Below, in pieces: positions 23,563 to 62,417 of a stretch of 64,000 bases of DNA. The position numbers and the translations under genes were made by a program. The notes below the pieces were generated by a model. That model had not been told where the DNA came from, ran no database searches, and worked only from the letters and a program-made list of their open reading frames with translations. The stretch is from Cyanophora paradoxa CCMP329 (lineage: Eukaryota; Plantae; Glaucophyta): NCBI GenBank assembly GCA_004431415.1, contig QPMI01000518.1:24796-88795 (forward strand), given 5' to 3'. Position 1 is the stretch's first letter, and each line of letters starts with the position of its first letter.

Positions 23563-23565
23563 TCC

Positions 23566-24240: not shown

Positions 24241-24349
24241 ATGTTCTATAAAACAGAATAAATGAATTCAAGTGTGACAGGTAGTATTCAAATGATATTC
24301 AGTAAGAGATATATTTGTTTTTGAGAAAGTCAGTAAGAGGGGTAGAATG

Positions 24350-24797: not shown

Positions 24798-24855
24798 CCG
24801 ATTATCTGACCATTTTCAGTAAGACCATCTGAAATTCTGAATTTCTCAGTGTCAA

Positions 24856-28130: not shown

Positions 28131-28152
28131 TCTTTATATTATACAAACAATA

Positions 28153-29211: not shown

Positions 29212-29230
29212 CTTTATAATTACGAAATAG

Positions 29231-32520: not shown

Positions 32521-32569
32521 CCCTGTTTACTCTACTTATAGAGATTTATTAAATTTGAGTTAAGTAAAG

Positions 32570-35977: not shown

Positions 35978-36160
35978 CTTTACCTTATCTCTCATATAAT
36001 AAATGCAAGAGTCTGTGTGGAAGGAGAACACAATTCCAAACTACTTTGCAATTGAGCCCAATGATCCAGGATTAAGATGTATATGGCTGCTGCATTTAAT
36101 TCGCGGTTTATTACTTCTTGGAGAGCGAAACCAAAGAAAAAGAAAGATTGATGAAGTAGA

Positions 36161-39100: not shown

Positions 39101-39441
39101 GCAATTCTCTCCAAGAATTCAATCCCATCTTGGATAACCTCCCCTCTTGCTCGATAGGTCAACCAAGAATATGCTTTGTTCATTGCTTCCCCATCTTCAA
39201 TCTCTGGTGCAATCGCTCCCAACCTTAAACCTTCATCCCTGAATTCCTCCATTTTCTCAAAACGATCATACAGTCGATTTGTAATTTCTGTGAGTTGAGA
39301 TAATCTTGGTCTCCTATCCAGGATTGCTGCCTGGCGATCATATTCGAATTCTGTAATATCACCAGTAACTAAAAGGGTTCCTAAAAGACCGAGTATTTCG
39401 TTTTTCTTTTCTTTGATGATTCTATTTGATTGGCGGGGCAT
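36161..39441 (-). CDS. polB: Protein-primed family B DNA polymerase (pPolB) with degenerate exonuclease domain; one frameshift at ~37160
   Basis: DANNLYG, KLMNNAIYGK, HDTDS and GLRSKLY polymerase motifs; RDHCH..G..C..CN zinc module; N-terminal CFKYAIL...GHY protease-like region after VGG. Confidence 0.92.
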
Positions 39442-39689: not shown

Positions 39690-39834
39690 TTTCTGTCTTA
39701 GTCAAGTGAAATACGCAACCATCCCTTAAATCGCCAGTCAATTTTTGTCACAACACAACGATTTTCGATACGTTTTTATATTGTCCGATTAAGAATCGAA
39801 ACAGTCATCGACCCACAGGGGGCGTCTGTGGTTA

Positions 39835-39972
39835 ATTGGGTGTGACGCCTGTGACGCCTGTGACACCTGTTTTCAGAGGTTTGTAGATTTTTGAAATTTT
39901 AAAAAGTTTGAAAGCAGGCGTCACAGGCGTCACAGGCGTCACACTCAATTAAAAAGGTGTCACAGCTGTCAC
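39835..39972. promoter_or_regulatory. Internal copy of the TIR iteron palindrome immediately downstream of the primase-helicase gene
   Basis: gtgacgcctgtgacgcctgtgacacct...aggcgtcacaggcgtcacaggcgtcac, with a spacer similar but not identical to the TIR units. Confidence 0.7.
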
Positions 39973-40041: not shown

Positions 40042-42403
40042 TTACTCATCCCCACCTTCAACATCACTGTCATCCACCAACTTGCGACTATGCTTCTTTT
40101 TGATCCCAAAGTAGCCACGAGCAAGAACACCATTGACTCGCTTTCTCTCAGCCTTCACATTAAAGACTTCGCGAAGTCTCTTCAAGATAGTGCATTCTGT
40201 GATTTTCTCATCAGATTTGCCCATGTGATCTATCTTAAAGTGACTGATAATGGACTCACTTGTGGCGAAATCCCCTTGACTCTTGGTGAGTTCATAACTC
40301 TCACGAATCCATTCTCCAATCTTGTCATTCTCATTGAAATATTCAACACCTTGATCAACAATGGACTGGGGTGGTTTGGTGACGAATTCATTGAGAGAAT
40401 GGGTTCTCCACATTTCCAGGAGAATGGACATATGCGCCATTTTATAATCGTCATCATTCTTCATTAGGCGCATGAGAGTGGTGTCTGCTTTCTTCTCACC
40501 AGGCTGAGGATCGACCTTGAAGACATTTTCGAATCGGTAGTAGATAATTCGCCTTTGAATTGCTGCATCTGGTTTACTGATTCCCAAGTTGTCATTTGTG
40601 GACAAGAACAACTGGAACATGGGAATGAATGTAACAAGATCTTTGAAAAGAGCTCGAACCTTCATCTCATTCCCACCAGTAACCTGTTTGATTTTGTTCA
40701 GTTGAAGCATATCACCATCTTCTGCTTCATTACTGAAAACAATTCGTTTACCAAGAATGCAAGCGAGTTCTGGGGAAGCCTCTGACGAACTCTTCTTGGG
40801 TTTAGTCCAATATGTCATGTCCAGTGACCCATAATACTCACCAAATGTGTCTTTCACCAACTCTTGGAGCAGTGATTTCCCATTTGCTCCAATTCCAGTC
40901 CAGCAAGTGTATCTCTGATTTTCTGTCAAACCACTCAGGGCATAGGCAATTAATCCCATCATAAATTCGCGGTTTTCATCAGATTCGATAATATCTGCAT
41001 AGATGGATTTAATCTTCGCAACTTTCTCTTGGTCAATTTCTGTGGTGTAATCGTAGCCAACAGTCTTACTCACCATATCATCTGGGAGTCCCTGTCGAAA
41101 AGTCATGGAGTTCAGGTCAAACACACCATTTGTAAATCCAATGATGTTGGGAACAGTATCAAGTCTCTCGAAAAAGGTCTTGTCACTGAACAGAACTGAA
41201 AGATCAGACATAAGTGCAGTTCTGTATGTAGTCTGTTTGAGGCTCTTAGCAATTCCAGCAGAATCTTTGACCTTTCCTCCAAGGAATTGCGGTTCTCTTC
41301 ATCACGAAGTGCTCTCTGTGCGAGTTGAACAGAACGTTGAAGATAAACTGGACAGACCTTGCAGCTCAAACAGAGAAAGATTCGCTTCCCAGTTTCATCC
41401 ATCTCCCAAATCCCACATACATCATTGAACTTGAACCAGGTCTTGTTGGAATACTTGTATTTGTCTTGCAGAACAAGATAGGCAACCTGTGCAACATCAT
41501 AATGGGCACCATCAGATCCAGCAGACCGATCAATCAGATTTTCGATCTTCACATCTGTCTCTTCCTTCACACGAACTGTGATGCTTCGCTTTTTGCAGTT
41601 TGCACTGTAACTCGAAACAATATATTTGTCCTTCTCCTTCCCTTGAACAATATACCAATTGTTCGAGTCATGGCTTCCCTTGCAGCAGGGACAGATCAGA
41701 CCTTTGTTCTCAGCAGTGAAATTGTATCCCATCTTGGTCTCATTGATGATTGTGGGCAAGATGAAACCGAATTCTTCGAGTTTAGAAAGAATATGTTTCT
41801 GCAAATTCTCCTCAGCGCACCTTGCATAATAAGAATGTGCACCTTTGGGGAATTCGTAGTTTTCAACAATCCACTTTTGCAACTCAGCAGTGGGTTCATT
41901 TAACTCACACTCAGATGCCCATGGCTCTCTGATCCATGTTTTGTTGGGACTGGGACAAACATTAATTACCCAGCAGTCCCAGTGGATGCAATCGTTTTGC
42001 AGTCGATCTTGGGGTTTCCTTTGAATGCACCTGCTTTATCCCAGATCTTAATGGTGTCGAATTCAGCAGGTCGAGCGAAATAAGCATGATATCCTTTTTT
42101 GGTTTTAGCAAGTGGATTAACACCACCGAAATCATCAGGGAATTGCTCCTCGAATTTGGCGAAATCCTCCTCTTGGTCGAAGTCAATAACCATGATATTA
42201 CGAGCAAGAATGCCCCAAGCAGTATATTTACCGGATTTCAGGGCTTCATCGAATTTATCCCAAGTCCAGGATCCGTCTTTATGAGCGAAAAGCGGTCTCT
42301 TGGTATCAGGATCAACAGGAATTACGAGATTCTCAGACAGGACATCGTCTTCACGAAGCCAGTCAACAAGGCGTTTCAGGGATTTCTTGGCGGCAGCGTT
42401 CAT
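40042..42403 (-). CDS. PrimPol (bifunctional primase-polymerase) + Zn finger + D5-like SF3 helicase; frameshifts at ~41970 and ~41255
   Basis: VIPV...KRP, IMVIDFD and KTKKGYHAYF (AEP motifs); CPCCKGSH; IGFTNGVFDL; WTGIGANGKS Walker A; IKQVTGG and RALF. A single added G in each of two G runs restores one ~790-aa frame. Confidence 0.9.
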
Positions 42404-44072: not shown

Positions 44073-44830
44073 TCAGTTTATTCGAATGAACACCACTCTT
44101 GACCTCTTTGGGGCTTCCTCTTTCTGTGGAGGTGGTAATTCGTCCTCTTTCTTTTTGGGCTTCCTGTGGAACCGAGGAAACTTAAAGTCTTTAACGAGTT
44201 CCGCTTTATCAACGTAGTATTCCACCGAATAATTCGCAGAACTCCAAATGAGAAACTGATAGGAGTGAACGTATTCCTCAAACATCTTATAGAAAGCGTC
44301 TTTATCCCGCATGATATTGTATTCTTCTTCAATGGCTTCCAGTTCTTTGCGATTGGCGGCACTGAGGAACATTGCATAATCCGAATTGACGCGAATGGTT
44401 GAAGAAACCTTACGCAGTTTCTGAGTTATGCAGAAAATTGTAATCGCCGAGTGGCGGCCGCGCGAATACAGAGATCCAATAATTTTATCACGGGTAAGGT
44501 CTACAATCTCATTGTCTATAAGATCATCGAGAACAACACATAATTGATTAACGGGTTCTCCTTTCTCAATTTTCTCTTGTCTTTCATCGAGAAGTTTAGC
44601 GATGTAAGGCGCATCCCATTTACCGAGCTGTAATGTTGCGACATCATCCCAAAAATGATTGAATGATGTCCCACTTATAACAAGAACAACATCTAACTTT
44701 TTCGCATCGTGAAGTTGTTTTAGCCAATATTTTACGGCTTCTGACTTGCCCGTCGCGCTTTTCCGATTGCTAATACGCGAAAAGGGGGTTTAATCATCTC
44801 AGCAGCATTAAATTCGGGAACGTCAGACAT
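44073..44830 (-). CDS. A32-like (FtsK/HerA) genome packaging ATPase; one frameshift at ~44760
   Basis: Hand translation: MSDVPEF...RVLAIGK[+A]SATGKS (Walker A), CVVLDDL (Walker B), SRGRH, CITQ and TIRVNSDY, in frame with ORF 44073-44372. Confidence 0.9.
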
Positions 44831-44892: not shown

Positions 44893-46290
44893 TTACAGAT
44901 TAATGCGACGAAGACCATCTTTGTCAACAATAATGAAACTGTGCATGAGAGCACGAACATTAACTGTGATTGTCTGGTCAGAAGGCATGTATAGAGTAAG
45001 GAAAGAAGAGGAGGAGTTCGTGAGATCAACATAGCCAGACTGGGCAATGTTGCGAATCGCTTTCTCTCCATCAACACAGAATGGTAGACCACTGAGGACA
45101 TATTTGTCTGCAACCTTGTCCATATTTGAGCACTTGAAGGCATCCGCAATTAATTCGGCACCTTTGAGGAGAGGGATGGGCTCAGTAGCATAGAGACGTT
45201 GACCATTAATTTCAACAGTGAAAGTAATGTCTTTTGAGTTAGCATGCGTTTTTAGGACACTGTGGGAACCATTGAAACCATCAATACCTGCGGCATCACG
45301 AACTGAAACAAGAAGACCATAGACAAGACCAGAGATCTGTGACAGGTTAATACGATTTGGTTGAGCATTGCCTTTTGCAGCAAAATTGACACTGTCAACA
45401 AAACCAATATCCAGAGCAGGAATAGCCATACCAGTGGTCTTCACCTTCTCAATGACAGTAGCAAACAGTTCATCAGAAACATTAATAGCATGCATGTAAA
45501 GACGAGGAGAAGTGACTTTAATTTCGGGGGTTGTTCCAGAGATGGTGAAAGTGGTGATCTGTTGACCAACATGGGCAAGAGTAGCATTAGCAGTAGCACC
45601 AAGTCCATCATCCTCTGTCTTATCAGCAGCTGTTCCACCAACAACTGGAAGAGCACGACCACCATAAGAAGTCTCAACATAACCCTTTCCAGCATCCTTG
45701 AACCAGACAGTCACCACCATTTCTCCTGTGAGAGCACCAAGAGGGAGGTAGTGGTTTAGCCATGGGACGGGGATTTCAACAAAGAATGACCCACCAAGTC
45801 GGTTGGTTCCATGGGCAGGGATACCATGAACCATACCCATTGAACGCTTCTTCTTGGCGAGTTGATCCTCACTGTAATAGATAAGAGGGAAATGAGCAAG
45901 GAAATCAGAAGGCACATGGAAAGTGTAAGATCCATAGGTGATTTCAAGTCGAGAGACAAGAGCACCAACTGGGCGAACGTATCCATTGCGAACAAGGTCG
46001 GTATCACCAGCAAAAGTGACAGCTGGAAGGTCAAACGCAAGTTCGAGTTTTCCACAGAAATTGTAGCGAGGGAGCTTGAAAGAAATGCGATTTCCAGCAT
46101 TATTCTCGAAAGTGTTGCTTGGGTTCACAACAACAAGAACTGGCTTCGACTTGGATTCAAGACCAAGCATGAGAGAGTTGTCCAGGAAGAACGCCTTGGC
46201 TTCTTCCGGGTTGTTAGAGCTTCTTTCAGAGAAAGACGTTGGAGGGTCGAAGTAATATCCATGATTATCTCTTTTATTATACTGCAACAT
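44893..46290 (-). CDS. Major capsid protein (double jelly-roll, PLV type); true start may be the ATG at 46262 with a frameshift at ~46208
   Basis: ~460 aa, beta-rich, between penton and ATPase; ISFKLPR...ALVSRLEITYG pattern. The alternative N-terminus MDITSTLQRLSLKEALTT matches LKELLTT of the element 2 MCP. Confidence 0.75.
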   Translation of the reverse strand: MLQYNKRDNHGYYFDPPTSFSERSSNNPEEAKAFFLDNSLMLGLESKSKPVLVVVNPSNTFENNAGNRISFKLPRYNFCGKLELAFDLPAVTFAGDTDLVRNGYVRPVGALVSRLEITYGSYTFHVPSDFLAHFPLIYYSEDQLAKKKRSMGMVHGIPAHGTNRLGGSFFVEIPVPWLNHYLPLGALTGEMVVTVWFKDAGKGYVETSYGGRALPVVGGTAADKTEDDGLGATANATLAHVGQQITTFTISGTTPEIKVTSPRLYMHAINVSDELFATVIEKVKTTGMAIPALDIGFVDSVNFAAKGNAQPNRINLSQISGLVYGLLVSVRDAAGIDGFNGSHSVLKTHANSKDITFTVEINGQRLYATEPIPLLKGAELIADAFKCSNMDKVADKYVLSGLPFCVDGEKAIRNIAQSGYVDLTNSSSSFLTLYMPSDQTITVNVRALMHSFIIVDKDGLRRINL

Positions 46291-46316: not shown

Positions 46317-47327
46317 TTACGCAAAACTCGCAATTACAGGATAAGATGGATGGGTTTCCGCCATCCTCCTCTTGAAATATTCATACACAGGATCACCAGC
46401 AGGTTCATCACCATATCGAATTTCGAAGGTGAGGTGCACAGGTTGACCTTCGAAATCAATTGGTTCATTAATTGCATTCACAATGTCAACCGAAAATGTG
46501 GAGAGCCCCAGATTCTTGTTATAGTATTTATAAATCGGATGGGCTTCTGTTGAATTATAAACGACATGCTCACCATAATCTTTATCAGGAACCACGATTT
46601 TGTGGAAATATCCAGTGAGGAGACCATCACCACATTGCACAAGATCACCCAGCTCTTTTACTCTCACAAATAGGACACTATCCCTGGTCTTCTCGGGTTC
46701 AAATGAAGATATAATACCATGCACCATCGACCCAGTGAAGATACCATCAGTAAGAGTATTATAAACCTGAGATTGGATTGGTGTGTTACCATATCTTCCA
46801 GGATCAAGACCAAGCAGTCGAGCAGAACTCAAAAACCTCTGAATCTGTGCCTGGGTTGGGTTAATTGCGGTTGAGAAAGCCAGGTAAAACGGTATGGTGG
46901 AATGGAATATTACTCGTTTCAGTGTATCATCCCATTTGCAACGAATAGCTACTGCTGGTTCTCTCAATGCAAGTTTGGAGTTAATTACATTCACCAGTTG
47001 TTGGTGGTTTTGAATGGGTGTGCTGCGACTTATCACAATGTGTTTCCATGATTCATAATCGGCAGCAGGTCGATCAGTTGGAATACCAGTGCTTCCTGCA
47101 CCAGCATAACTTTCAGACCAATAAAGGTAGAATGCATTATCTATTGTCACATCTCCTACTTTGGTTTCACCACTCACCATGGGGATGCTGTTATAGAATT
47201 CTGCTGAGACCAGTCTTACTGCTCTTACAAATTCATATGTGCTGGGGAGGCGAGCAATAAAACTCGAAGTAGGTCCATCTCCCGAAATTGTATTAAAAGA
47301 GCTCACTTCAATGTAATCCACAGGCAT
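46317..47327 (-). CDS. Minor capsid (penton) protein A
   Basis: SSF..RLP...VRAVRLVSAEFYNS at the N-terminus and FSVDIVNAINEPIDFEGQPVHLTFEI at the C-terminus. Confidence 0.75.
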   Translation of the reverse strand: MPVDYIEVSSFNTISGDGPTSSFIARLPSTYEFVRAVRLVSAEFYNSIPMVSGETKVGDVTIDNAFYLYWSESYAGAGSTGIPTDRPAADYESWKHIVISRSTPIQNHQQLVNVINSKLALREPAVAIRCKWDDTLKRVIFHSTIPFYLAFSTAINPTQAQIQRFLSSARLLGLDPGRYGNTPIQSQVYNTLTDGIFTGSMVHGIISSFEPEKTRDSVLFVRVKELGDLVQCGDGLLTGYFHKIVVPDKDYGEHVVYNSTEAHPIYKYYNKNLGLSTFSVDIVNAINEPIDFEGQPVHLTFEIRYGDEPAGDPVYEYFKRRMAETHPSYPVIASFA

Positions 47328-47355: not shown

Positions 47356-48288
47356 ATGATTCGGCTGGTCAATATAGATAGCAGAGACCGATCAGATGGA
47401 CAAATAGAAAACTCCTACAAGGTTTCACTCACAACCCCAGTGACCAAACCAAGAGAATGTCGAGTTTTGTATGCAGAGATCCCCAACAGCATCTATAACT
47501 CCATTGGAACAGACCACCTTCTTGTCAGATTCTACTACCAAGGCATCTCTGAAACCAAGCAGGTCTTCCTTCTCCCAAGTGGTTACATAAATCAAGGTCA
47601 TTTCGGGGTCACCACTCCATATAATTATGGTCTGAATTTCACATTTACTGGGAGCAACAATCTCACATATGCATTCAAGGTCTACTACAACCCTACCTCC
47701 TACAAATTGGAGTTTTACAGTAATGTTCAATTCGATATGGTTGCATCTACACAGAGATTGGGTAAACTTCTTGGTGTGAGTTCAGTGGAGTGGGTGGCTT
47801 CCACCGAACAGATTTACGATTTCCCAGAGTCTGCAAGGTCTTTATATGCCCCCGAGAATTTCCTTTATTTTTCAGGAATACCAATCACCCCAAACCATCC
47901 CCAATGGGGAATCACATTCACAGGATATGAATTCGAGGCATCTCGCTTAAACTACAAGTTAGAAGCATCCAAGATGACAGATATGAATGCAGAACAGTAT
48001 TTATACATGCACATTAAAGAACTCTCCCCATTTGCTACAAACCACAATATTGTCCCAAGATCACAACCACAGAATCAAGGGGCGATTCTCAGATTGCAGT
48101 TAAGTAAAGATATTGGGCAGTATGTTTATCACAGTGGAGAGCACAGTGAATACATAAAAATAACCGATCGAAACCTGGTGATTAGAGAGTTAACAGTTGA
48201 GTTTCGCGATTATTATGGTGATCTTGTAGATATGAATGGAATTGACAACTCATTCCAGTTAGAGTTCTTGGCTATTGGTAATGATTAA
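47356..48288 (+). CDS. Minor capsid (penton) protein B
   Basis: NIDSRDR...YAEIPNSIYN and LTVEFRDYYGDLVDMNGIDNSFQLEF, typical PLV/NCLDV penton termini. Confidence 0.8.
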   Translation: MIRLVNIDSRDRSDGQIENSYKVSLTTPVTKPRECRVLYAEIPNSIYNSIGTDHLLVRFYYQGISETKQVFLLPSGYINQGHFGVTTPYNYGLNFTFTGSNNLTYAFKVYYNPTSYKLEFYSNVQFDMVASTQRLGKLLGVSSVEWVASTEQIYDFPESARSLYAPENFLYFSGIPITPNHPQWGITFTGYEFEASRLNYKLEASKMTDMNAEQYLYMHIKELSPFATNHNIVPRSQPQNQGAILRLQLSKDIGQYVYHSGEHSEYIKITDRNLVIRELTVEFRDYYGDLVDMNGIDNSFQLEFLAIGND

Positions 48289-48585: not shown

Positions 48586-49969
48586 ACGAGAGTATCTCAT
48601 GAGATAGATGAGAGAATAACAGGTGTGTTTTCAGGGTTGGAGAAATCGGAGAAACATAGAGTATTGCGATTTCCGAGTTAGTTGACACTGAGAAATTCAG
48701 AATTTCAGATGGTCTTACTGAAAATGGTCAGATAATCGGGTGTGACACCTATTTAATTGACTGTGACGCCTCTTTAATTGACTGTGACGCCTGTGACGCC
48801 TGTGACGCCTGTGACGCCTACTTTCAAACTTTTTAAAATTTTCAAAAATGACAGACTTCTTAAAACAGCCGTCACAGCCGTCACAGGCGTCACACCCAAT
48901 TAAAAATGGAATCTCTTTCTCTTACTGAGATATTCAAAAATATATTCTTGTCTTACTGAAATCCGTCTTGTGACACTCTGACACCTACAAAACACTATCC
49001 ATTAATCCACCTTTCCGAAAATGCGAAGTTGTCTTACTGGAAATGGTCTGCAATTTCGCTGTGACACCTAATTTAATTGAGTGTGACGCCTGTGACGCCT
49101 GTGACACCTACTTTCAAACTTTTTAAAATTTTCAAAAATGACAGACTTCTGAAAACAGGCGTCACAGCCGTCACAGGCGTCACAGACATTCTACCCCTCT
49201 TACTGACTTTCTCAAAAACAAATATATCTCTTACTGAATATCATTTGAATACTACCTGTCACACTTGAATTCATTTATTCTGTTTTATAGAACATATGCA
49301 ATCTCATCGATTATTCAATTGGAGACCATGCAACTCTGTGACACTTTTTCGATCAAAAGTATACATCCGCAATCTCATCGATTGTTTAATTGGACATAAT
49401 GCAGTTCCGATATATTCCAATAGAAAATCCGCAATCTAATCGATTGTTTAATTGGAGATAATGCAACTCTGTGACACTTTTTCGGTGCAAAAATGTAAAT
49501 CCGCAATCCCATCGATTGTTTAATTGGACATAATGCAACTCTGTGACAGTTTTTGCGTTTTCCGATACAAAATGGGCGGTGGTCTACTTCAATACCGATG
49601 AGATATATCGAGTTTATGCGAATTTATGCGAATTTATGCGAATTAATCGCGATTATATCGTTCTTTAAGTAGTTTAATGTTAATCAATCGAAGTTATATA
49701 TGTAATCGACAAAGAACATAATCTATCGATATAATATCGATTGAATCAATCGTGAATATGCATTAAATTAAACGCGTTTATCATTTTTAATACAAAGTTT
49801 GCATTAATTTATACAAAGTTTGCATAAAAAGTTAAAGAAATTAATCGATAAATATGTATTTTAGTATTAAATTAACACATATTGAAAAACGAATTTAAAT
49901 CCAGAGTGAATCGAGATCGCGAAGCGATCGAGATGAACGAGGGATTTAAATTCGTTTTTCAATATGTGT
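48586..49969 (-). repeat. Right TIR of element 1 (~1384 bp)
   Basis: Reverse complement of 23566-24951. Confidence 0.95.
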
Positions 49970-50019
49970 CGGTCCTTTCGATGTCTCTTCCAACAACGAG
50001 GCTCCTCCTCGTGTGCGCG

Positions 50020-51347
50020 GCAGCACGCGGAGAAGCTGGGGCGGGACCAGCAGGAGATGTGCGCCGTCGCGCACGGCGTCGCGGATAGCCGCCAGTGGGA
50101 CATGGTGCCCCCGCCCGCCCCCGCCCGCCTCGAGTGCAGCCGCGACCCGACCCGACCGACCCGCGCGGCCCGCCAGATCGTGCAGATGCTCATGATAAAG
50201 CAGCCCGAGTGGATGAGGGTGAGTCGGTGATCACGATACGATAAATTTAAAGCGACCCGGGCCTCCCTCCAGTTATTGTGCGCCGGCCGCGAGCTGAGGG
50301 CCTCGGGCAGGACATCGAGGAGGCGGACCGGCTGACGGGGATGGAGCCGGCCACGTGGGACGACCGCTACAGCATCAACTTCTTCGGGGTGCGGTCGCGC
50401 GCGATCCGCATTGAAGTTTCGGGGCTGTGCGATGCAGTCGCATTCTCCCTCGCGCGCGTCTCGAGCCGGCATGCACGTGCAGGCCCCCGACGACGCCGAG
50501 GAGGCGGAGATCCCCTCCCCCGTCGTCGTTGCGACCCCCAACTCGCGGCCGCGCCGCCCCCTCGGCCCCCAGCCGGCCGCCCGCGTCCTCGCGAGCTACG
50601 GGGCGCCGCCGGCGCCGGCGCGGACGGGGAAGGGGGCGAGGAGGAGGCGCCGGCGACGATGACGGAGGCGGAGTGGAGCGCAATGATCAACGAGCGGATG
50701 AAGAATTCCGTCCTCGCCCTCAGCGTCGTGCGCCGCCCCGCCGGGACGGGCCGTTTGGGCGCCTCCGCGCCGGCTGATGCGCGGGCGCGCCGCGGTGGCA
50801 GCTGGCGGGGGCGAAGGAGGCGGCGGAGAAGGCGCGCGTGAGGTCGCTCACCTGCGAGACGTGCGAGTTCGACAAGCAGCCCGCGCGCAACGCGGCGCGC
50901 CAGAGAGCCATTTTCCCCCCTGCATGTGCATCCTTCAGCCCTCTCCCGTCTGACTGCTACCACTGTACGCTCAGGCGGCGATCGCGAGGCACAAAATGAC
51001 GCCCGCCCACGTGGTGCGCTAGTCGCGGCCGATCCGAACGTCGACTTTCAGCTATAGCTTCTTGAAGCCTTGAATTTCGTTAATATACTATTTTTGCATC
51101 GACTCGAACTGACCCTGGGCGCAGGAGCGGGACCGGTCGTACCGAAAGCTGCTGGCCGACCTCGCCATAATCTGCGAGGATGCCATCGAAGGGTGCGCTG
51201 CGATCGTACACGCGTCCGGCTTGAGTCTCGCATCCCCGTGCAGCCTTGTCGAGCCCCTCGAGCTGTGGATTCGTCGACCCGCACGTGGATTCACACGCGA
51301 GCGCAGGATGCAGGAGACGATAGCGGCGCTGTGCGACCTCGGGGGCC
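50020..51347 (+). CDS. Host TRANK1-like gene, right copy, exons between the two viruses
   Basis: HAEKLGRDQQEM..QWDM, LTCETCEFDKQP and ERDRSYRKLLADLAIICEDA match left-copy exons HGEKLLGDRQEM..QWDM, CDACECKKQP and ERKRLYHKLLLDLASICEDA. Confidence 0.7.
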
Positions 51348-51774
51348 AAAAAAAATGAGAGAGGACCTGATTCTGTGGCCCACCCCTCTTCACCACCCTC
51401 ACCTCTCCGAACCCACCCCAACCCACCCAATCCAGCGTCTTCCCAGCCATCACTCTCGCCAACCCTTCCGCTACGTCTACCGCCCTTCTCTCCCTCTGGT
51501 CTACCTCCCTTCCATCCAGCAACCACTAGGTAGTATCTAACGTCTACTCCAATCGATCTTGCAAAAGATATAGCAGTGATTTGAGACGGGCCCCAACGCG
51601 ACGGTCTGCAGAGATAGCTTAATCAGCAGCTAGGCGTTAATACTGTGTTCTTCCTATCTAAATAGCGGAGAGGTTTCCAGGTTCTAGCTAGACGATAAAA
51701 CTATATAATCGAAGCTGATTGCATATGCGAGTTTAGGTTCTAGTTAGTCAATAATACTGTGTGGATGATAGCGC
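51348..51774 (+). repeat. Left TIR of element 2 (~427 bp), starting with an A run
   Basis: Reverse complement of 61996-62417 with a few small indels. Confidence 0.93.
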
Positions 51775-51850
51775 AGTAGCAATGTTGAAGATTTGGACAG
51801 GAAGTCCTAAAAAACGAAAGATCGAGAGATGTTGAAGATTTGGACAGAAA

Positions 51851-52255
51851 GTATAGTAATGTAGACGAGCTTCTATGCGCTGGCATAAAAGTATAGTAAT
51901 GTAGACGAGCTTCTATGCGCTGGCATAAAAGTATAGTAATGTAGACGAGCTTCTATGCGCTGGCATAAAAGTATAGTAATGTAGACGAGCTTCTATGCGC
52001 TGGCATAAAAGTATAGTAATGTAGACGAGCTTCTATGCGCTGGCATAAAAGTATAGTAATGTAGACGAGCTTCTATGCGCTGGCATAAAAGTGATAGTGC
52101 GCTGATAGTGCGCTGATAGTGCGCTGATAGTGCGCTGATAGCTAGCCGGAGACAAGCCGGAGACAAGCCCGAGACAAGCCTGTGCCAAGCCGGATCCCGG
52201 AGACCAAGCCCGAGCCAAGCCGTCAAGCCAATCGTTACAGGCATCGTTACAGGCA
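51851..52255. repeat. Subterminal tandem array: 6 x 40 bp, then ~4 x 11 bp (TGATAGTGCGC), ~3 x 11 bp (GCCGGAGACAA) and 2 x 12 bp
   Basis: gtatagtaatgtagacgagcttctatgcgctggcataaaa starts at 51851, 51891, 51931, 51971, 52011 and 52051. Confidence 0.95.
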
Positions 52256-52370
52256 TTCACTCCCAGCGATGCCGGAGCCCTAGCTTAGTGAAGCGCTCAG
52301 CATTGGCTTGTACTCGATCGCCGGCCCGACAGGATCAGCACTGCTAGAGGCGATGCGCAGGATCGATGCG

Positions 52371-52800
52371 TTAGCTACAGCAGCTCGCTAGCATTCTCAT
52401 CGACCTCGGGATCGCAACAATCGTCTTAGCAGGAACAGCAGATGCAGGAGGGGCAACCTTCTTATCGACCTTTGTCTTCGTGATCGGTTCATTTAAAATC
52501 TTGTTCTCCATCTTAGTCTCAGCCGCGATGCCAGCTATAAGATCACTAGCTCGCTTCTTTGAAACTGTTTTAAGACCGGTCACAGTTTTAATGAAATACC
52601 TGCTACGATTAGCCGTCTCTGAGATGTACAGCGGCCCATCGTCGTATCCTTAGCTTGCTAGTCTTGGTCTTCTTAGTCCGAGAATTCGGATCTTATCAAG
52701 AATAGCGTTCTCATCGGCGGTAAGAGCATAGTCGTTGGATGCACCCTCACCGCCACCAGCGCGACGGGCTAGCGGTAAGCATCAGTATCACCACTCAAGA
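52371..52800 (-). pseudogene. Frameshifted Lys-rich hypothetical protein, probable homolog of 43287-44021
   Basis: Shared TKxxVDKxVAP motif; fragmented reading frame. Confidence 0.4.
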
Positions 52801-52979
52801 ACTCGATGTGATTCTTCTTAGTAGGGCTGGAAGTGCGCAGCCAAGACTGCATGTCTGTCGACTTCTTCGCGGAGTGCGCAGCCGAGACTGCTTGTCTGTC
52901 GACATCTTTTAACTAGTAGTGGGAAAAAACTTATGCGAACGATCTGTCGAAGGGACGTACTCGCTGGCTGCATTCTTGA

Positions 52980-53785
52980 TTGCGGATTTAGCAGCAGCAG
53001 ACGTGTAAGAGACATCTCGATATCGAACTCTAGCACGAACGAGAACTCCGTGTTTGTGACAGCGTCTGTTCCATTATGATAGCGCAGCGATATGTCAAGT
53101 TCAGACAGCTCAGCGTTTCGATCGAAGCCTGTGACGGGAACACGATCCTCAGATGTGAACTTGATGAGCTCCCCGAATTTTGAGTCGATGTGAATCTTTG
53201 CGATCGAGCCGTTGTATAGGGGTTAAGTGTCAAGATCGAGCCTTTGATCTGCTGAATGTACAGGAACAAATACGTGTGATAAAGTAGATCAACTGGCATA
53301 TCGCTGAACAGCTCGTACGAATATTGTACGCATCGATTGTCTCAGGTGTGTCAAGCTCACTGGAAAGGTCACTGAGAGTCTTCGCAAACCCGAGCAGGTT
53401 CGCTAGTTCGGCCGATGTGAAGCTCAAAATAAAGTCCGCTTCACACAGGAACTAAGCCGCATTGAGATCTCTTCGAACTGAACGACGAACTTGCGCTGAT
53501 AAGTAGTTCCACCGTAACTATACTGCTGGGTTTTAAGAAGCGTGCTTAGATAGTTTGCAAGGGAGGTTGGCGTATAGACTCCGGGCTTGAAAGTGTTGGC
53601 ACGTGTTTTCTCAACGCCAGAGGGATCAAGGGTGCCGTGATAATTGCGGCTTGTGTGGACAGGTTGAACATGTTATGAAACAGTTCTAGCGAATCAACTC
53701 GCACCGACTTTACATTAACGAGGGCCTGGGAGATTGATCTTGAAATTCGAGGACGTGCCTTCGAACCGGTCCCTAGAATCGACAT
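52980..53785 (-). pseudogene. Minor capsid (penton) protein, frameshifted
   Basis: Fragments GTSSNFKINL, VNVKSVRVDSLELFHNMFN, LANLLGF, YLFLYIQQI and EFDIEMSL follow penton order. Confidence 0.6.
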
Positions 53786-53844
53786 TTACGCGGAGCTTCA
53801 TCTTACAACAATATGCATGAAAATTTTCTGGTCTATAATAGCAA

Positions 53845-55013
53845 ATGGCGCAAGCAGGAACAACTCTAAAGGAGCTCCTCACTACCAAGGTTCAAGCGAG
53901 CTTTATCTATCCCGGGTCTCACTGTCGGTGTCAGCCCCAAGTTCAAGCCTTCTTGAAACGATCCGTCCGCGAGGCAACTCGTACGGCTTCGCGCAGACTG
54001 CGCTTTCGACCTTCCGCGCAAGCAACTTCTAACGGTGTCTCGCTATACTTTAAGGTCAGCGTCGCTGGCGGAGCGGCCGCCTCAGTGCTGCCGAATGGCG
54101 CAGGTGCATTTATTGAAAACGTGCGCTTTGTTCATGGATCCTTCAAGATGGTGATCCCAGGAGACTGGCTTACTGTGAACGCGCTCATCGATAATAGCGT
54201 TGCATCCGCCCAGGCTTTTGCTAGCAGCTACGGCTTTGGAAAGGACGCTGCTCTTGAGATTCTCGATGCCAGTCGCGAGTATGTGCTAAAGATCCCTCCC
54301 AGCTCTGGGACAATTCATACTTCCCGCTCCTCGCACTGGCTGACATGCCCACCGTCGAGATTGATTCCGTCGGCTTCGGTGGTTGGAACTGTCGCTAGTG
54401 CTGTTGCAACTCTAACGGATTGTGCCTGGTTTGCCAGTTCGTGAATATCCTAGCGAAGAGGCTGAGTCTATGCTTAAATCTGCAAACGAGAGCGGTGTAT
54501 TCGAATTCCTTTCACGAGATTATTTCAAAGCGCTCGAGGCAGTTAAAGACTGACGACGCGGGGAATGCAGTCGAAATCTCCTTGCCAACGTCAGCGGCTT
54601 GTGCACGCGATCCTGATGACAGTGCGTAATGCGAATCACCTGGGCACTCGCATCACAATTCATTTGCTGGCAACGGAAATGCGCTGAAAATCGATTCGTT
54701 TGAGATCATGCACAACAACGAACTCTCGACATCAGCAATAAGCCAATCTCTGGGTTTGTATCATCGTGCTATCACATTCCAACTCAATACCGCGGTGCAA
54801 CCACTGGCAATTCAGCTCTTGGCTTCGAGGACGGAAATGTCTATGGATTGTGGCTTTCGAAATCTGGCAAAGACTCACTGCATAACGCTGTCCTCGCTAC
54901 ACGACTTCTTTAATTCCAGCAGCAGCTACTGCTCGCTAACTGTGACCGGCTGCACAACGCAGCGCCAGCAGTTGTTGACTCCACGTCCTGCGCCACAATG
55001 TTCTCGTAATTAA
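53845..55013 (+). pseudogene. Major capsid protein, frameshifted
   Basis: GAGAFIENVRFVHGSFKMVIPGDWL aligns with PVGALVSRLEITYGSYTFHVPSDFL of the element 1 MCP; it lies directly upstream of the ATPase. Confidence 0.65.
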
Positions 55014-55053
55014 CTCGTATCAAATGTCAACTCTAAAGGTAAGTAACTTCTAG

Positions 55054-55720
55054 ATGGATATCAAACTGTTTGATCCTACAGAAATAAAACTGCCTAAACG
55101 GTTCTTGTTTGTCGGTCCAACAAACTCGGGCAAGAGCACCTACGTAAAACACGTGCTAAATGCTGTAGCGCACTTAGACGATATTTACGTCTTCAGTACG
55201 ACCGCATTTACTGGGCAATGGAATGATACAACACGACCAAGTATATCCAGGAAGAATGGGATCCAGTTTTGGTTGAAGCGCTGCTAGAACGACAAAAGAA
55301 AGAAGACGCAAAAATGATGATCGCAGAATTGCAATTGTTTAGACGATTACTTGACAATGACCTAGTAATGTCCACAGTGACAGACTCATGCAAAAGCTAT
55401 TTACTTCTGGCCGTCATTACAACACACCCTTTTCATAACGACTCAACGTCTTTGTGGCATCAGTCGACGATTCGGCGGAACTGTGAGTACGTTTGCTTTT
55501 CGTCGATTTTTGAGCAATGTTTAAAGAGTTTCAACACTTGCTTCGACGAATATAATGCCGGAGCGAGTCGAGCAAATCTAATGCGTCTTTTCGTTGAATG
55601 GGGTCATTCGTTTCAGTTTTGATATATGAAGGCGTGAGCGCGGACCGCGTTTATGCTGTTGACAAAGCTCTGGAACGACTTCGGCTTATTGCGCTTTGTG
55701 CGCGTAAAAAAGCAGCGGCG
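55054..55720 (+). pseudogene. A32-like packaging ATPase, frameshifted
   Basis: FLFVGPTNSGKST Walker A; GRHYN and STIRRNCEY fragments in shifting frames. Confidence 0.85.
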
Positions 55721-56450
55721 ATCGAAAGTCCGTAGCCAGGACTGTTTGAGCAAACAACTTGTATATCTGGACGTGATGTCGCGATCCACAGGTAGGAGGC
55801 TCCTTTAAAATACAAAGCTGATGCAGTGACTGGGGTGTAGTTGACTCCTGCTGGCCAACAGTCTCTAGATTTAACTCTTCCTCTGCCGTTTCGAGTTCGA
55901 GTTCCATTAAAAAGATAAAGGGGTGTATTCCCTTCATTCAAACTGTGGGAAGTTCAGCCGCAGAAACGGCTTGTCCTCTTCGCTGGTATGTTCTATAACG
56001 TAAGCAATCACGAGCTTGAGCTGCTGCTTCGGCGGTTGCAAAGTAGCCGATGTTCTTTAGACGGCCATTGATCTGTAATTGCTTTCCATTTACAAAGTCG
56101 CTCATAGAAGCTGACGCCAATGAATCCTGATGTGTTTGTGAGCCGACGGTTTTGGTTCAACATCTGCTGACGCTTTGTCGCAAACGTAGATTCTCGCGAC
56201 GATTATCGAGTTTGTTATTATTAATGTGATCTACAGTAAGGTCATTCTCAGTCTCCAACAATGAACGTATGCAAATACATATTCTTCCATTGATCTTGCT
56301 CCGAGGCTATAACCATTGTTCAAACACCATCGTTTCTCCAGCACTCGATCAGCATCATCCTGTGATACAAAAGCGTAGGCGACGATTACTTTGCGCCGAT
56401 TGCGAATACCGCTAACGGAATCAAAGCAGCTCCTCTGGAACATCTGGAAC
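55700..56450 (-). pseudogene. HNH endonuclease with AP2 DNA-binding domain, frameshifted
   Basis: Fragments AFVSQDDADRVLEKRWCLNNGY, DHINNNKLDNRRENL, NTSGFIGV and QINGRLKNIGYFATAEAAAQARD. Confidence 0.8.
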
Positions 56451-56879
56451 GATGACCCTCCATCTGCGCAGCGAGCTGCTTGTCTGCGACTTTTTCGTTA
56501 CATTTACAGTTTGCATTATCTTTAAGACTTAAAAGTCGCGCTAATTTGTCTTAAAAGGATTTATGTCTCTTATTATTGAGAGACAAACCGAACAATGACT
56601 TCTGCAATTACTGGCGGATTGCGTGTGGCGGTTTAAACGTGGCCGTGGCGACCCCTAAGGTTCGTCTTTTAACAATGGAGCCTATCAGCGAAGAAGAAGG
56701 GGGCTAAACCGTGGAGGGTCACCCCGGAGATTTTAGCAGAGCGACGCAGAAAGAATGCTGAACGCAATCGCAAACTGCGCCACACGAACGAAACATACCG
56801 TTTGAAACAGCTGCCATCACAGCGAAGTATCGAGCTGAGAATCCTGATAGGATCCGGGAGTACCACAGGAATGCTATTG

Positions 56880-57811
56880 CGCGTAGATGCCTCGCGAAGA
56901 GCGGAGCTTCTGTAGAGCTCGAGGTGATGCAGCTTTAGCACCTGCTCGTAGCTTTGGCTCCCCTGCAATCTCAAGCTCTTGAGCTCTCGATACTGGCCGG
57001 CTTTGACCGCTGTATTTTTTGTTTCGATCAACCCTCACGTCTCAATCGTCTCTGCTGTCGCATTTGCACTTCTTCTTTTCGATTCGTGTTTGAGGTGCAG
57101 CTCACGCGTTGACGTATTTCCGATGGTTTAACACGTCTAGAAATTCCACACCGCTGTTTTGTAACGAGTCGAACACGGTTCTTGTCTGCGCCAGCAACTA
57201 TGTACGTCTCCTTGCTTGGCTTTGTGTTCCCTCGCAAAAACGTTGCTTCGGCTCCAGGACTTGCACTTCGGTCCTGTGCGCGGTATGTTCGAATTGTCTC
57301 GTTCAATATCGTTCTGTCGCTGTCTAACTTGATGCAGCTGCTCGGCTACCTGTGTATTTTCCCGCATCCACTTTGGTGAGTGCTCCCGCCGAAAGAGCTG
57401 TGGGCTGTTTCATTGTACGGCCTTGACAATTGCCGGCAAACGTGAGAGGAAATGCGGGGAGCCACGAGCTTCTGTATCAGTCTGAATCAGTGCTCGCAAT
57501 GTCCTCTGCGAACCTGTCGATAATTCCCAGCTTGGAGCCTTTTGAAATGTGATCATCCTTAGCCACATCAGTGTGCATTTTCAACGAGTTCTCTTCAGCC
57601 ATTTCCCGAATTGCTGCTGTGTTGAAGCCGTTGTCTCTGAAAGCCCCATATTCCAGGTAGCTGCTCGATCATTTTTGGAAGCTGCTTAAAAGTCTCGAGC
57701 TTACGGACCACAGCGAAACGGGTTGCAATCTCGACCGCTGCGACAGGCGAAATCTCCAATGAACAGCACGTCAATTTGCCACGCACGGGTGGCGGCAGTA
57801 ATCTGGTACAT
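56880..57811 (-). pseudogene. rve integrase, frameshifted; begins directly at the catalytic core
   Basis: MYQITAATRAWQIDVLF, AVEIATRF, DNG, KLGIIDRF and YNETAHS fragments; 3' end approximate. Confidence 0.7.
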
Positions 57812-57820
57812 CTTTGTAAA

Positions 57821-60800
57821 TCAGGCGCGATTTTTATAATGTCCATCGCTCGGTGTGTTGATCCCGTCAGTCTCGAGGAAGCGTTTGGTATCAAGGGATG
57901 TAGAGCCGACGCGAGGTTCGTTGTAAATAAATCTCCATGTAGTTTTCGAGCGGAAACCGAGAATCCTTTGATGTCATACGATTGCTTTCTCCCTCTTTAG
58001 GGCAGACGCACCGGAAGAATACATCTTGTGAGTCTGTTGTAGTACGTCTTTTGAATACCCTTGCATACCTGCTTGTCGTGGAATCTTCACGCGAATAATA
58101 GTAAGATTTCGGCGTTAGCGATCCACCTGTCATTTGCAGACCATGGAGCTCATCCTTGAATAATCCGGAGTTTTCCCCATCGATCGTAGAGTCGAACCTC
58201 ATCGGCTGTCATGCCATCGAAGAATCGATGTGTCTCTGGGTAGTCGCTAACATCCAGCTCATGCTTGATTGAGCGTAAATCAGCATAGATAATCTTTGGT
58301 GCGAAACTCGATGATAGACTGTCAGTATCCGTACCTAATAGTGTCAGCCGCTGGCCCAAAGCAGCTTGAGCACCTGGTAGTAAAAGCGGTACATGTGCAG
58401 CTTGGAAAGTTCGAGGATGACGAACCGCAGTAGATAGGTTTTGTTCAGATTGTACTCACTTTTGCGCTTGGAACGAATACAAGGTTCTCTTCGTACATCA
58501 CCACCTGCTTCAACCGATTTGGTTCGCTGTTGATCTTCACCAGACGGTCTCCCGAAGTCACAAGCTCTGAAAAGCAGTGCTTTCTCACGTTCTCCATTGT
58601 TTTGCCAAAGACACTGTTGTTCATCAACTTGTAAAGGTCCTTCTGGTATGTGAACTGCGATTCTTTACGTTTTTGAGTATTGAGATCTATGAAACGCCCT
58701 AGCCATGCGCTTTGTTCGTACGATAGGATCCGATGGATGTTGGTTACTATCATTCCCAGTGACGTATAGAGCTGAAGCAAGCGTCCATCAACAACATAAT
58801 TCTTTTTTGGAAGCAGATTTGGAACGAGCTTTGGAGTTCGTTCAACTGAGGTAAGCTTCTCGTCGTTAATCATATCCTGTTGTCGCTTTGATAGGTGTTC
58901 CTTGGACACACACATCCGTTCAGGGGCCAGCGGATAGTCTGAGAACTCGTCATGGAGATGCTCAGGCATGTACATATCGACTTCGAGAGCATAGCCACGA
59001 GCTCCATCCGCGTCAAGGCTTGCAACGTACTGCATTACATCAACGTCTTGATCTAGTTTATCCCAGCGGAAATCTCCTGTGGGTAGCTTGCGCTTCATTG
59101 CGACGCCGTACAAGTTGTTTGCATCGAGGTACATGAGCCACGATTCCTTGTGTGTTCGGTAGTAGTTAGAAATGCATGTAGACTGTGAGACTGTAGGCTC
59201 AACAGCGTGGGTGTACTTGTTGAACTTTATGCTCAAATATTTGTTCTCAGCTCGTGCGTAGCGTTTTGAGATCATTGAGATTCCGCCCCTGATCCCGGAT
59301 TCTATAAATCTGTGCATATCCTGCTGCCCCTCGTGAAAGAGCTCGAGCTTCACTCCAGTGTGCTTAAGTGCTGCCTGCCAAGCAAATCCCGGCGATGACA
59401 TAAAATAGCTAGGATCTAGGCCATACGTTTCAATACACGTATCACGATAGTTTTCAAACACGTCAGCTAGTAACGCGATATCTGTCATCATATACTCCAT
59501 TGTATAGCCTGATAGCGTTCTGCAGCCGAGCTCTCGCCAAACAGCCTTCGCATGTGCGTACTCATCTTTCGTGCATTTCTTCTGTTTAAGCTGATTTTTG
59601 AAATAACGACGTGCAGGCAGTTTAGACTCCTGAAAGCGAGCCCAGCTCGTCATGTAGTCATAAGGGTAAATCCCTTTGCTAGTCATCAGCTTGAACCGAG
59701 TCTCGTCCAGATACAGCGAGCGCGTGATCTTCTTCTTCTCCGCGGGCAGAGCCTTTGCAAGGTCGTCCAAGCTCGCATTCAAGTGCTGAGCCGAGTCCCG
59801 TAGAACGTAAATTCCATACTTGAACTGCGAAATTCGCTCGCTATTCTGGAAGACCTGATCGAATTTTATCGAAAGGAGACTCTGCGGGCGGAGCCGGCGT
59901 TCGAGCCCCTTCTTCGCCTTCTTTTTCTGCTCTGGGGTCATCTCACGCCCACCGTACTTGCTTTCAAACTCGCTTTCGACATGCGCTTGAAACTCCTTCC
60001 AAGCTGCTAAACGACGGTTATAGCCAGATGCTAGAGCACGTACGAGCAGGTGGAAGTCAAATCCTCGACCGTTGTGCCAGAATAATGGAACAGCAGCTGA
60101 TTTCGCGCGGCGTCGATTGCAAGCTCTGCAGGCAGCCCCGAAATATCGGCCAGATTCGTGGCAGTGATCACGGTGCTTGTCTTTCGCATCCTTGAACGTG
60201 TTCTTGCACATGTAGCACTCGGTCGTCGTTTGAAAACGCTGCTCCTCTTCCTGAGTAATCTGGATTGGTGCAGTCTCTCGCAAAAGCTCTCGGAATTGTG
60301 GTTCCATTTCGTCCAACCATTGCACGAACTTCTCAGTGCAGTCCTCGCTCTCCGAACCCATGTATTTGAAACAAAACTGTTCACCTTTTGAAGATACAAC
60401 CAGACAGCCGACTGAAGCAATCACATGCACACCTTTCTTTTCGGTCTTTCCACTAATGCAGGGAATTGGCATTGTAATCGTCTCTGAATCAGCATATCCG
60501 ACCAGACGTTGCCGGATTGAGTACTCAAAGTTAATAAACTTCTGGATATGTGCTCCTTTCTCCGGCAGAACATCTCTTGCGTGTTCATCCCGATCAAGGC
60601 AACGGTCATATTTCAGATGATTTTCAAATGCTTGATCTGAGCTAAAACCGACCTGGCAGGCTAAGCAATAGTGCTTTGCATTTGATTCGTTCTTTCGGAA
60701 CAGTCGTGAGACGCTCTTAATCCAGAGGTAATGCCCGACATCGTTTCCCTCCCCAGCCGGCACATACAGTATTGGGATTGCGTCTCTCGCAGCACTGATA

Positions 60801-61867
60801 TGGATTGGTATGATATCCTGCTTATCTAGAGCAGTTGTATAAACGCAGAGCTTGACGTTATTTGCTTGCTCGAATTTGGTGAACATCCTCGAGTCAAGCG
60901 GGGTCGGATATGTAAGCATTGAGCAGTCCAGCGATGTCTCGTGCTGGCGGTAGTTCCCTGCATGCCGAGAATCAACACCTTCGCCCAATGGATTGCGAGC
61001 AGCAAGGACTGCGTATTTAAAGCACTCGTTGTTCGGTGCATTTATATTGATAAGCGCGTGCTTGTCTGAGAGCCACTTTGGCAGTACAAAGCCTCGGCCA
61101 CGGCCACCAATCCTGCGGAAATAGCGCACAGTTTTAAAGACCAGATACACCCACGTGTCAAATACTGAGGAATCCCTGCTTTTCTCTGCCGAGATCATGT
61201 CTAATTCTTCGAGCTGTGAACGCAAGGCCGCCTCAATGCTTGTCCCTGGCTCGATGCGATCGAAACGACGATGTTCAATAACGATAGCGATCGTAGAATC
61301 TGTCTCTGGCTTTCTGTAGACACCCAATCCAGAGATTTGTAGTGCAATGCCCATTCTTACCGCCTCTGCAAGATTTACCTGGGCGCTTACGAATGATATA
61401 GCATTCTGTTTGAACTGCTCAGAATTCTCGAAGCGAGCTTGCATTGATGTTACGCGGCCAGAACCGCGAGGCAATTGGTATTTCCACTCCGCATATCGCC
61501 CGTCAAGCGCTGTTGTAGTATTTCCGTCATTGATTTGAACATCATTTCCACCGTCATCCTCAGGCAGCTCGGCAAAGCCACGGACGATCTCTGCCTGCAC
61601 CTCTGCGATCGCCAGCTCTAGTCGACGACCTGACACAGGACGCGCTGGCCTAGGAAGTCTTGCAAGTTCGTTCAAAAGTGAAGCGTACTTTTCCAAAGTT
61701 GCAAACCGTGTTCTCGACCCTTGTGCTGAAATTCTAATCAATTTATTTTTGAAAGCTCCATGTATGACGCGTCGATTATACAATGAAATCGCGAGCGCTT
61801 CGATCTGGTCTTTGATTCTGGCCAACCGGAAGCGCCGAGTCGCTGCATTATTTTGGGTAACGTCCAT
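57821..61867 (-). CDS. polB: Protein-primed family B DNA polymerase; 1140 aa intact, C-terminal ~200 aa frameshifted
   Basis: Exo I YADSE, Exo II WHNGRGFD, Exo III YMMTD; DANNLYG, KLMNNSVFGK and GTDTDS; C-terminal DTKRFLETDGINT..GHYK ending at TGA 57821-57823. Confidence 0.95.
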
Positions 61868-61995
61868 TGGAAGTATATCACAATTTTTTTGCTTGTTCCA
61901 AACGCAACTTCACATAGCAATATTGGAAAGGGATCTCTTTAAGACAAAATAAGAGAAACCTCAATTGCGGTGACCCTTTGGTGATTCAAAGACCG

Positions 61996-62417
61996 GCGCT
62001 ATCATCCACACAGTATTATTGACTAACTAGAACCTAAACTCGCATATGCAATCAGCTTCGATTATATAGTTTTCGTCTAGCTAGAACCTGGAAACCTCTC
62101 CGCTATTTAGATAGGAAGAACACAGTATTAACGCCTAGCTGCTGATTAAGCTATCTCTGCAGACCGTCGCGTTGGGGCCCGTCTCAAATCACTGCTATAT
62201 CTTTTGCAAGATCGATTGGAGTAGACGTTAGATACTACCTAGTGGTTGCTGATGGAAGGGGAGGTAGACCAGAGGGAGAGAAGGGCGGTAGACGTAGCGG
62301 AAGGGTTGGCGAGAGTGATGGCTGGGAAGACGCTGGATTGGGTGGGTTGGGGTGGGTTCGGAGAGTGAGGGTGGTGAAGAGGGGTGGGCCACAGAATCAG
62401 GTCCTCTCTCATTTTTT
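61996..62417 (-). repeat. Right TIR of element 2 (~422 bp)
   Basis: Reverse complement of 51348-51774. Confidence 0.93.

Follow-up and report, generated by a model that had tools for sequence, protein, structure and literature searches.

Both tips of an integrated polinton-like virus of Cyanophora paradoxa carry a strand-asymmetric G.A hairpin with natural covariation

A polinton-like virus (PLV) of 26.4 kb (positions 23566-49969) lies in the window, the 64-kb stretch of Cyanophora paradoxa DNA analysed here, and both of its tips carry the same 95-nt hairpin, with every mismatch on the 3' strand a G.A pair. The hairpin is real and under selection. Palindromic PLV and virophage tips have been described and hairpin priming has been proposed for them; we found no report of the one-strand G.A design, its covariation or the fixed orientation. 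The reading we prefer, to which we give an even chance, is a nuclease-resistant 3' cap combined with a local origin or protein-loading site on a protein-primed linear genome, by analogy with Streptomyces.

The virus has 1.39-kb terminal inverted repeats (TIRs), a 6-bp target duplication and a G+C content of ~40%, compared with 50-85% in the flanking host DNA. The TIRs, the target duplication, an rve integrase, a protein-primed family B polymerase (pPolB) and a predicted double jelly-roll capsid protein support the first-pass annotation of an integrating PLV, which resembles group-2-like Polintons and PLVs. Its features are as follows.

23560-23565, + strand: left target-site duplication, CGGTCC
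23566-24951, + strand: left TIR, 1386 nt, with 0 substitutions and two 1-nt indels relative to the right TIR
23566-23660, - strand: left terminal hairpin, purine version at the 3' end of the - strand
24341-24464 (mirror ~49071-49195): origin-like palindrome 1, inverted 9-bp repeat arrays around an A+T-rich core
24632-24796 (mirror ~48741-48904): origin-like palindrome 2
27111-34111: fibre-like and accessory genes (two C1q-domain ORFs, a PTR + H-lectin ORF and a patatin + F5/8 ORF)
34578-35995, - strand: rve integrase in two frames (35588-35995 and 34578-35531; Pfam rve E 0.003, under the curated cut-off)
36161-39441, - strand: pPolB, frameshifted (37117-39441, a short third-frame piece, and 36161-36976)
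39830-39953: fifth origin-like palindrome, immediately downstream of the PrimPol-helicase gene
40042-42403, - strand: PrimPol (AEP) + D5/SF3 helicase, in pieces (Pfam Prim-Pol, D5_N and DUF5906)
44073-44830, - strand: packaging-ATPase-like gene, start approximate (translations read by eye)
44893-46290, - strand: major capsid protein, predicted double jelly-roll (fold matches of a low-confidence model)
46317-47327, - strand, and 47356-48288, + strand: two penton-like ORFs, no family match
48586-49969, - strand: right TIR
49875-49969, + strand: right terminal hairpin, purine (G.A and GAA-loop) version at the 3' end of the + strand (sequence and folding)
49970-49975, + strand: right target-site duplication, CGGTCC

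All core replication genes are frameshifted in the window copy, for which decay and long-read error are both possible causes. One homologue of the integrase was found (71% identity, 463 aa). The pPolB matches Pfam DNA_pol_B_2 below the curated cut-off (E 6e-5) and keeps its polymerase motifs. The packaging-ATPase-like gene has no family match; by eye, a frameshift splits its Walker A-like string. For the capsid protein, two homologues and no sequence match in PDB were found, and the top eight fold matches of its model (mean pLDDT 37) are all double jelly-roll capsid or scaffold proteins (Z 8.6-9.9; the best with Z 9.9, rmsd 4.0 and 158 aligned residues). The penton-like ORFs are presumably such by position and resemblance. 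No capsid maturation protease was found among 21 element ORFs in a Pfam scan. An S-adenosylmethionine decarboxylase gene (24856-25257) extends into the left TIR, and an 885-aa fibre-like ORF contains a 36-bp repeat array (29815-30166).

A second, shorter element occupies ~51340-62430. Its inverted ends comprise at least 51403-51705 and 62063-62365 (97% identity) and have AG-rich tips, with a 40-bp tandem array at 51808-52127. Its pPolB (58445-61867) has intact exonuclease motifs and a truncated C-terminus. No terminal hairpin was found in this element, which serves as an internal control. The host DNA contains an inverted duplication at 12822-21584 with arms 97-100% alike in blocks and a 92-nt spacer (17161-17252); it is either a real palindrome or an assembly fold-back. 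Near the left target duplication of the PLV are a 34-bp tandem duplication (23497-23562, just before it) and an 88% inverted repeat (11242-11358 and 23352-23468).

The right tip begins with a 28-bp stem of 75% A+T (49875-49902 paired with 49942-49969), which encloses a 39-nt middle (49903-49941). Beyond the stem are a 12-position segment, six Watson-Crick pairs and a GAA loop in the apex GCGAAGC. Its 46 opposed pairs comprise 39 Watson-Crick and seven G.A or A.G pairs; the seven lie in the 12-position segment, as three 5'-GA/3'-AG tandems and one extra A.G beside five Watson-Crick pairs. Recomputation reproduced exactly the fold described in the first-pass annotation and verified that the left tip is the exact reverse complement of the right, with the purine version at both 3' ends. 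The palindrome ends flush against the target duplication, where not even a 1-base extension is possible. The 3'-terminal T is fully paired in the stem with template running inward, which is the geometry of self-priming.

A scan of both strands of the window for hairpins with at least 15 Watson-Crick pairs, at least two G.A pairs and zero other mismatches returned the two tips only. If mismatches were uniform, seven out of seven in the stem would be G.A on one strand with a probability of 7e-6; with transition bias the figure is 6e-8 to 1e-6. GCGAAGC by itself is not enriched in the window (18 occurrences, 19 expected). Both strands fold better than all 200 shuffles, with z-scores of -13.75 (purine) and -11.16 (pyrimidine). 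Their nearest-neighbour energies (-34.3 and -32.9, respectively) differ by only 1.4 kcal/mol, in a model that leaves the G.A positions unpaired, as open loops. The difference in stability claimed for the strands is taken from published melting data and not from this folding: among the 64 GCNNNGC loops, those described as forming a mini-hairpin are GNA alone, with a Tm of 70-76 C and resistance to 3' exonuclease (PMC13037366). It is likely that only the purine strand, at both 3' ends, folds back well. A miRNA or RNA role was rejected, as every one of 16 Rfam matches was below its gathering score. A protelomerase-type mechanism was set aside by reasoning: the half-arms that a protelomerase joins come from opposite strands and would form a perfect stem, leaving no selection for mismatches.

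Contigs of five public runs (X1, X2, X3, X12 and X18, of 24 listed) were compared with the window. The first four share an organism label, perhaps represent one strain and possibly include the source of the window itself. Run X18, from organism B, gave 0 matching contigs, which is not proof of absence. Contigs lose rare variants, and the variant figures refer to the pieces and loose ends listed. The window hairpin (type A) is a single contig at a depth of 2683 in X1 and 2852 in X12, where the host junction has depths of 47 and 23, giving hairpin-to-junction ratios of 57 and 122. The hairpin is present in many copies, depth not being equal to copy number. At the 1% threshold no other letter is listed in 49875-49969, and 32 variant places are listed in 49532-49840. 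A second inner haplotype (eight differences in 117 nt) appears to carry the same hairpin (P 0.001); conversion between ends could also explain a hairpin common to both haplotypes.

Two sister hairpins were identified in the same runs, each with a middle of 29 nt against 39 nt in type A. Type B has the type A stem and the triplets GGA, GAA, GAA, GAA and GGA. Its sequence was pieced together from a loose end behind 49904 and an overlapping one before 49939, with its orientation inferred, and one of its loose ends (X2, X3) covers, with the aligned part, 28 of the 29 middle letters; its depth is at most 717 in X1 and 436 in X12. Type C is one 158-nt contig per run in X1, X2 and X12 (depth 124 in X1 and 84 in X12), running from A+T-rich inner DNA into a stem with four other letters and then GGA, GGA, GTA, GTA and GGA, separated by GC or GCGC; 30 of its 57 loose letters were read and the remainder was taken as return stem from the length. 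Inspection by eye gives each of them a fold with a GNA loop and two internal GNA/GNA motifs. The mismatches are purine.purine only in type B, and type C adds a G.T and a T.G. Three of the four differences between B and C fall at the five N positions of G-N-A (P 0.01). The covariation check on the claimed selection for G.A structure came out in its favour: the sister hairpins change letters and keep G-N-A on the same strand, and the three types together provide natural covariation for sheared G.A pairing. A fourth end type, a loose end behind 49870, has a different stem and the same first eight bases. A 46-nt piece in X2 (five other letters, depth 413) fits no described type.

These data bear on an origin by accident or artefact, whether by fold-back copying, a mistake in assembly or the neutral erosion of what was once a perfect palindrome. 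Such an origin would be in keeping with the indel-type breaks seen in several assembled genes, and accidental annealing is named as an alternative in the text of 10.64898/2026.07.28.741278. However, the identical hairpin is a high-depth contig in both X1 and X12, the identity of the mismatches has P < 1e-5, and independent variants keep G-N-A. Contig variants and mismatch statistics thus largely refute this reading, which we regard as hardly credible.

Orientation can be read from the mismatched tips. AAV-type resolution, Cavalier-Smith fold-back and poxvirus-type junction resolution each invert the palindrome, and with inversion in each round the pyrimidine arm would be expected next to the inner TIR at half of the ends. 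An unbroken X12 contig (49810-49903, depth 2128) leads out of the inner TIR, crosses the stem and reaches the first purine, and in X2 another (49850-49904, depth 1414) runs into the purine arm. A flipped branch would break both, so their continuity counts against flip/flop. In X1 and X3 the contigs are interrupted at 49902, as expected from either an infrequent host junction or an infrequent flipped end. Depth arithmetic gives an upper limit for the flipped join of ~10-13% (367 against 2900 in X1; 312 against 2128-3100 in X12). Both ends in the window share one orientation. Equal flip/flop forms are absent from the contigs of integrated ends; rare flips are possible.

Poxvirus- or AAV-type ends, that is, closed or terminally resolved hairpins that invert every round, are therefore very improbable, at odds with the same form at both window ends, with the unbroken inner-to-purine contigs and with a flipped join far below the 50% expected. 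A G.A pair on one strand also forces C.T on the other, which would be hard to understand if both forms had to cap. In favour of such ends, an imperfect A+T-rich terminal palindrome resembles these telomeres, those of vaccinia reportedly being flip-and-flop, and the integrase might select one form, the data being from integrated ends.

The polymerase was compared with five other pPolBs. It carries a predicted terminal-protein domain with S188/Y189, a vOTU protease with C235/H336 and an EndoVII-like domain; S188, C235 and H336 are invariant in all six sequences. A model of the terminal-protein region has the order strand-helix-strand-strand-helix-strand and places S188/Y189 in a loop (pLDDT < 50) that follows helix 166-185 and precedes strand 193-204. 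This loop, ahead of the last strand, is where Krupovic et al. locate the linking residue of terminal proteins in the text of 10.1101/2024.03.18.585575. The pPolB is thus predicted to retain its terminal-protein domain and the associated protease. Its exonuclease (proofreading) motifs are replaced and ~100 residues are deleted in frame, which the other two frames do not restore, whereas the second pPolB in the window keeps these motifs. Because the Gly neighbouring the predicted linking Ser is absent, the loop has low pLDDT and the exonuclease has decayed, the element pPolB may be a relic. A search for an HUH nickase gave no family match and no HUH-like motif in a coding frame; two HUH-like strings occur, both outside coding frames, and several element ORFs have no family label. 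The comparison with rolling-hairpin systems in the first-pass annotation was not borne out as worded, given the lack of an HUH nickase among the genes found, the absence of equal flip/flop and the retention of the terminal-protein Ser/Tyr and the protease residues.

Under the 3'-cap reading, single-stranded 3' ends would arise when the PrimPol-helicase fires at the origin-like palindromes or when pPolB displaces a strand. The 3' strand would then snap into the G.A/GNA hairpin, whose 28-bp stem would recreate the genome-end duplex in cis and act as a local stand-in for a panhandle. The terminal protein would prime on the 3'-terminal ...TGTGT, where an ACAC start would permit slide-back; pPolB, lacking proofreading, would copy through the hairpin and remake the pyrimidine 5' strand; and rve would insert the 3' ends into host DNA across a 6-bp stagger. 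Because fresh priming at the tip never inverts the palindrome, selection would act on the 3' strand alone and the C.T mismatches on the 5' strand would be a by-product. There are two simple routes by which the pyrimidine 5' strand can be restored with no inversion: terminal-protein priming and host repair after integration. Priming by a terminal protein at the 3' tip needs no extra enzyme, would work for free genomes and has a precedent in Streptomyces.

An alternative that we hold to be possible, if on the doubtful side, is self-priming with asymmetric opening. The paired 3'-OH of the folded hairpin, flush with its template, would prime the second strand; the closed end would be nicked at the original 3' end, likely by rve, and joined to the host, and repair would copy the hairpin, so that integrated copies keep one orientation without a terminal protein. 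Such priming has been put forward for virophages and PLVs of Halocafeteria that have non-pPolB replicases, and the present element has a PrimPol-helicase and rve. Some parvovirus ends are described as self-priming yet existing in a single form (PMC8242256), Streptomyces fold-backs are reported to be extendable in vitro (PMC4513846), and the element pPolB is partly degenerate. Against this, amplification of free genomes would require a one-strand nickase and no HUH protein was found, the flipped ends that symmetric resolution would yield were not observed in equal numbers, and the terminal-protein Ser and protease residues are kept. Where the first-pass annotation had the 3' ends fold back to prime or protect replication, protection is the better fit and priming fits less well, self-priming of one pre-integration second strand being possible.

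The tip might instead be a signal recognised on one strand during integration, excision or packaging, with only the purine strand extruded and bound or cut. The fourth end type keeps its first eight bases despite a different stem, GNA mini-hairpins are strand-specific signals in phage origins and promoters, and the EndoVII-like domain of pPolB could cut a cruciform. However, a pPolB with EndoVII is also encoded by the second element of the window, where no terminal hairpin was found. In addition, the fold persists although the middle differs in sequence and in length between types, a pattern that fits stability better than sequence read-out. We consider a recognition signal improbable.

The two origin-like palindromes in each TIR and the fifth beside the PrimPol-helicase gene are putative replication origins. 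The set possibly flags a replicase module that invaded; the text of 10.64898/2026.10.13.758929 describes a second replicase bracketed by repeats. The TIRs also contain 72-bp subterminal repeats (23981-24238, mirror 49300-49560) with relatives at very high depth in all four runs; the depth at 49500-49543 is 52000-82000 in X1, X2, X3 and X12. A further, tentative reading is a Streptomyces-style telomere reached by convergence in a eukaryotic host, in which the PrimPol-helicase would replicate from the TIR origins and the proofreading-dead pPolB would be an end-patching enzyme, loaded by a G.A-zipped hairpin that folds on the 3' overhang only.

We searched public databases for related ends. In IMG/VR there were 0 matches to the type A apex and 0 to the origin-like repeat; the capsid and helicase proteins gave 0 confirmed loci and the integrase one weak locus. 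A long G.A-zipped terminal hairpin was present in 0 of 12 IMG/VR loci (L027-L038, 11 of them found via pPolB alignment), which are distant relatives with ends probably missing. One of these viral contigs, L034, has a near-perfect A+T-rich hairpin with 37-bp arms (5755-5831) just downstream of its pPolB gene. The triplet motif of types B and C matched one viral and 25 metagenome stretches, of which one (L021) lies by eye in a long perfect stem and the others are short internal hairpins. L021 (~565-660, - strand) is a metagenome contig with a 21-bp perfect stem around a GNA-triplet zipper and direct repeats before it, and it may represent the end of an unrelated element built in the same way. 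GNA/G.A hairpins also occur in L024, in L025 and in the phage contig L001 (1450-1485, 2048-2068 and 2188-2206), there downstream of a gene that we take to be terminase-like. Since GNA zippers are also found in unrelated phage and metagenome DNA, the motif is a reused part.

The closest described tips are those of Halocafeteria seosinensis, where the text of 10.64898/2026.07.28.741278 reports terminal palindromes in virophage subtypes 1, 2, 5 and 6 and PLV subtype 4, mostly with non-pPolB replicases, and offers a hairpin-priming model as a proposal. As in those elements, the palindrome here lies at the TIR tip next to the target duplication and accompanies rve and a non-pPolB replicase, the PrimPol-D5 helicase. 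That text gives a 52-nt palindrome and is silent on G.A mismatches, GNA loops, asymmetry and orientation, although its figures or supplements may show mismatches. Unlike the palindrome-tipped elements it describes, the present one also has a pPolB with a predicted terminal-protein domain. The terminal protein of a pPolB cannot prime non-pPolB replicases, so the Halocafeteria association of palindrome and replicase counts against the cap reading.

Streptomyces telomeres, as described in the texts of PMC5449611, PMC4513846 and PMC7205883, combine internal replication, 3' overhangs that fold into G.A-closed GNA hairpins, and patching by a terminal protein. Common to both are GNA loops with G.A on the 3' terminal strand (direct for types A and C, inferred for type B). 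N varies between replicons in Streptomyces, where nuclease resistance is proposed, and between sister hairpins here. The Streptomyces system is bacterial, with several short palindromes, Tap/Tpg and no B-family polymerase; the PLV has one long hairpin, G.A zippers in the stem and a predicted terminal protein fused to pPolB, and Pfam matches of the element ORFs include no Tap/Tpg homologues. The likeness is one of analogy and not homology.

Parvovirus ends, as described in PMC8242256, share a mismatched 3' terminal hairpin with a paired 3'-OH and are in some cases single-form, but parvoviruses are ssDNA viruses with an NS1/Rep nickase, whereas this element encodes a predicted double jelly-roll capsid protein, rve and pPolB, and a search of it for an HUH protein found none. 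A literature search on sheared G.A in parvovirus ends gave nothing useful. With protein-primed PLVs and Polintons, as described in 10.1101/2024.03.18.585575 and PMC12220804, the element shares the TP-vOTU-pPolB layout, rve, TIRs, a 6-bp duplication, and PTR + H-lectin and F5/8 proteins of glaucophyte-PLV type; the text of PMC12220804 reports F5/8 domains from PLVs of glaucophytes and a single case of a PTR + H-lectin protein, from a Cyanophora paradoxa PLV. Unlike those described elements it has a terminal hairpin, a dead exonuclease and a second replicase with origin-like palindromes. The word 'hairpin' is absent from the main text of both papers, and 'palindrom' from that of PMC12220804. GCGNAGC mini-hairpins of phage G4, RSF1010 ssiA and the N4 promoters have the same apex and strand-specific stability, but are described as internal priming or promoter signals of bacteria and phages and not as genome ends (PMC13037366). 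In the literature outside subscription journals and preprint supplements, no text was found on strand-asymmetric G.A tips in such viruses, their covariation or their fixed orientation.

For the copying and protection of PLV ends, the sole proposal for palindromic tips that we met is the hairpin priming set out in the text of the 2026 preprint, which is conjectural. Perfect palindromes cannot show inversion, whereas mismatched tips record orientation, and the present data already argue against flip-flop. The three hairpin types suggest, from natural covariation, that G.A zippers and GNA loops fold in cells. If the convergent reading were true, the element would represent a third mode of end replication for polinton-like viruses and a snapshot of replicase replacement. 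With many near-identical copies in one host, protein-capped and self-primed ends are directly testable.
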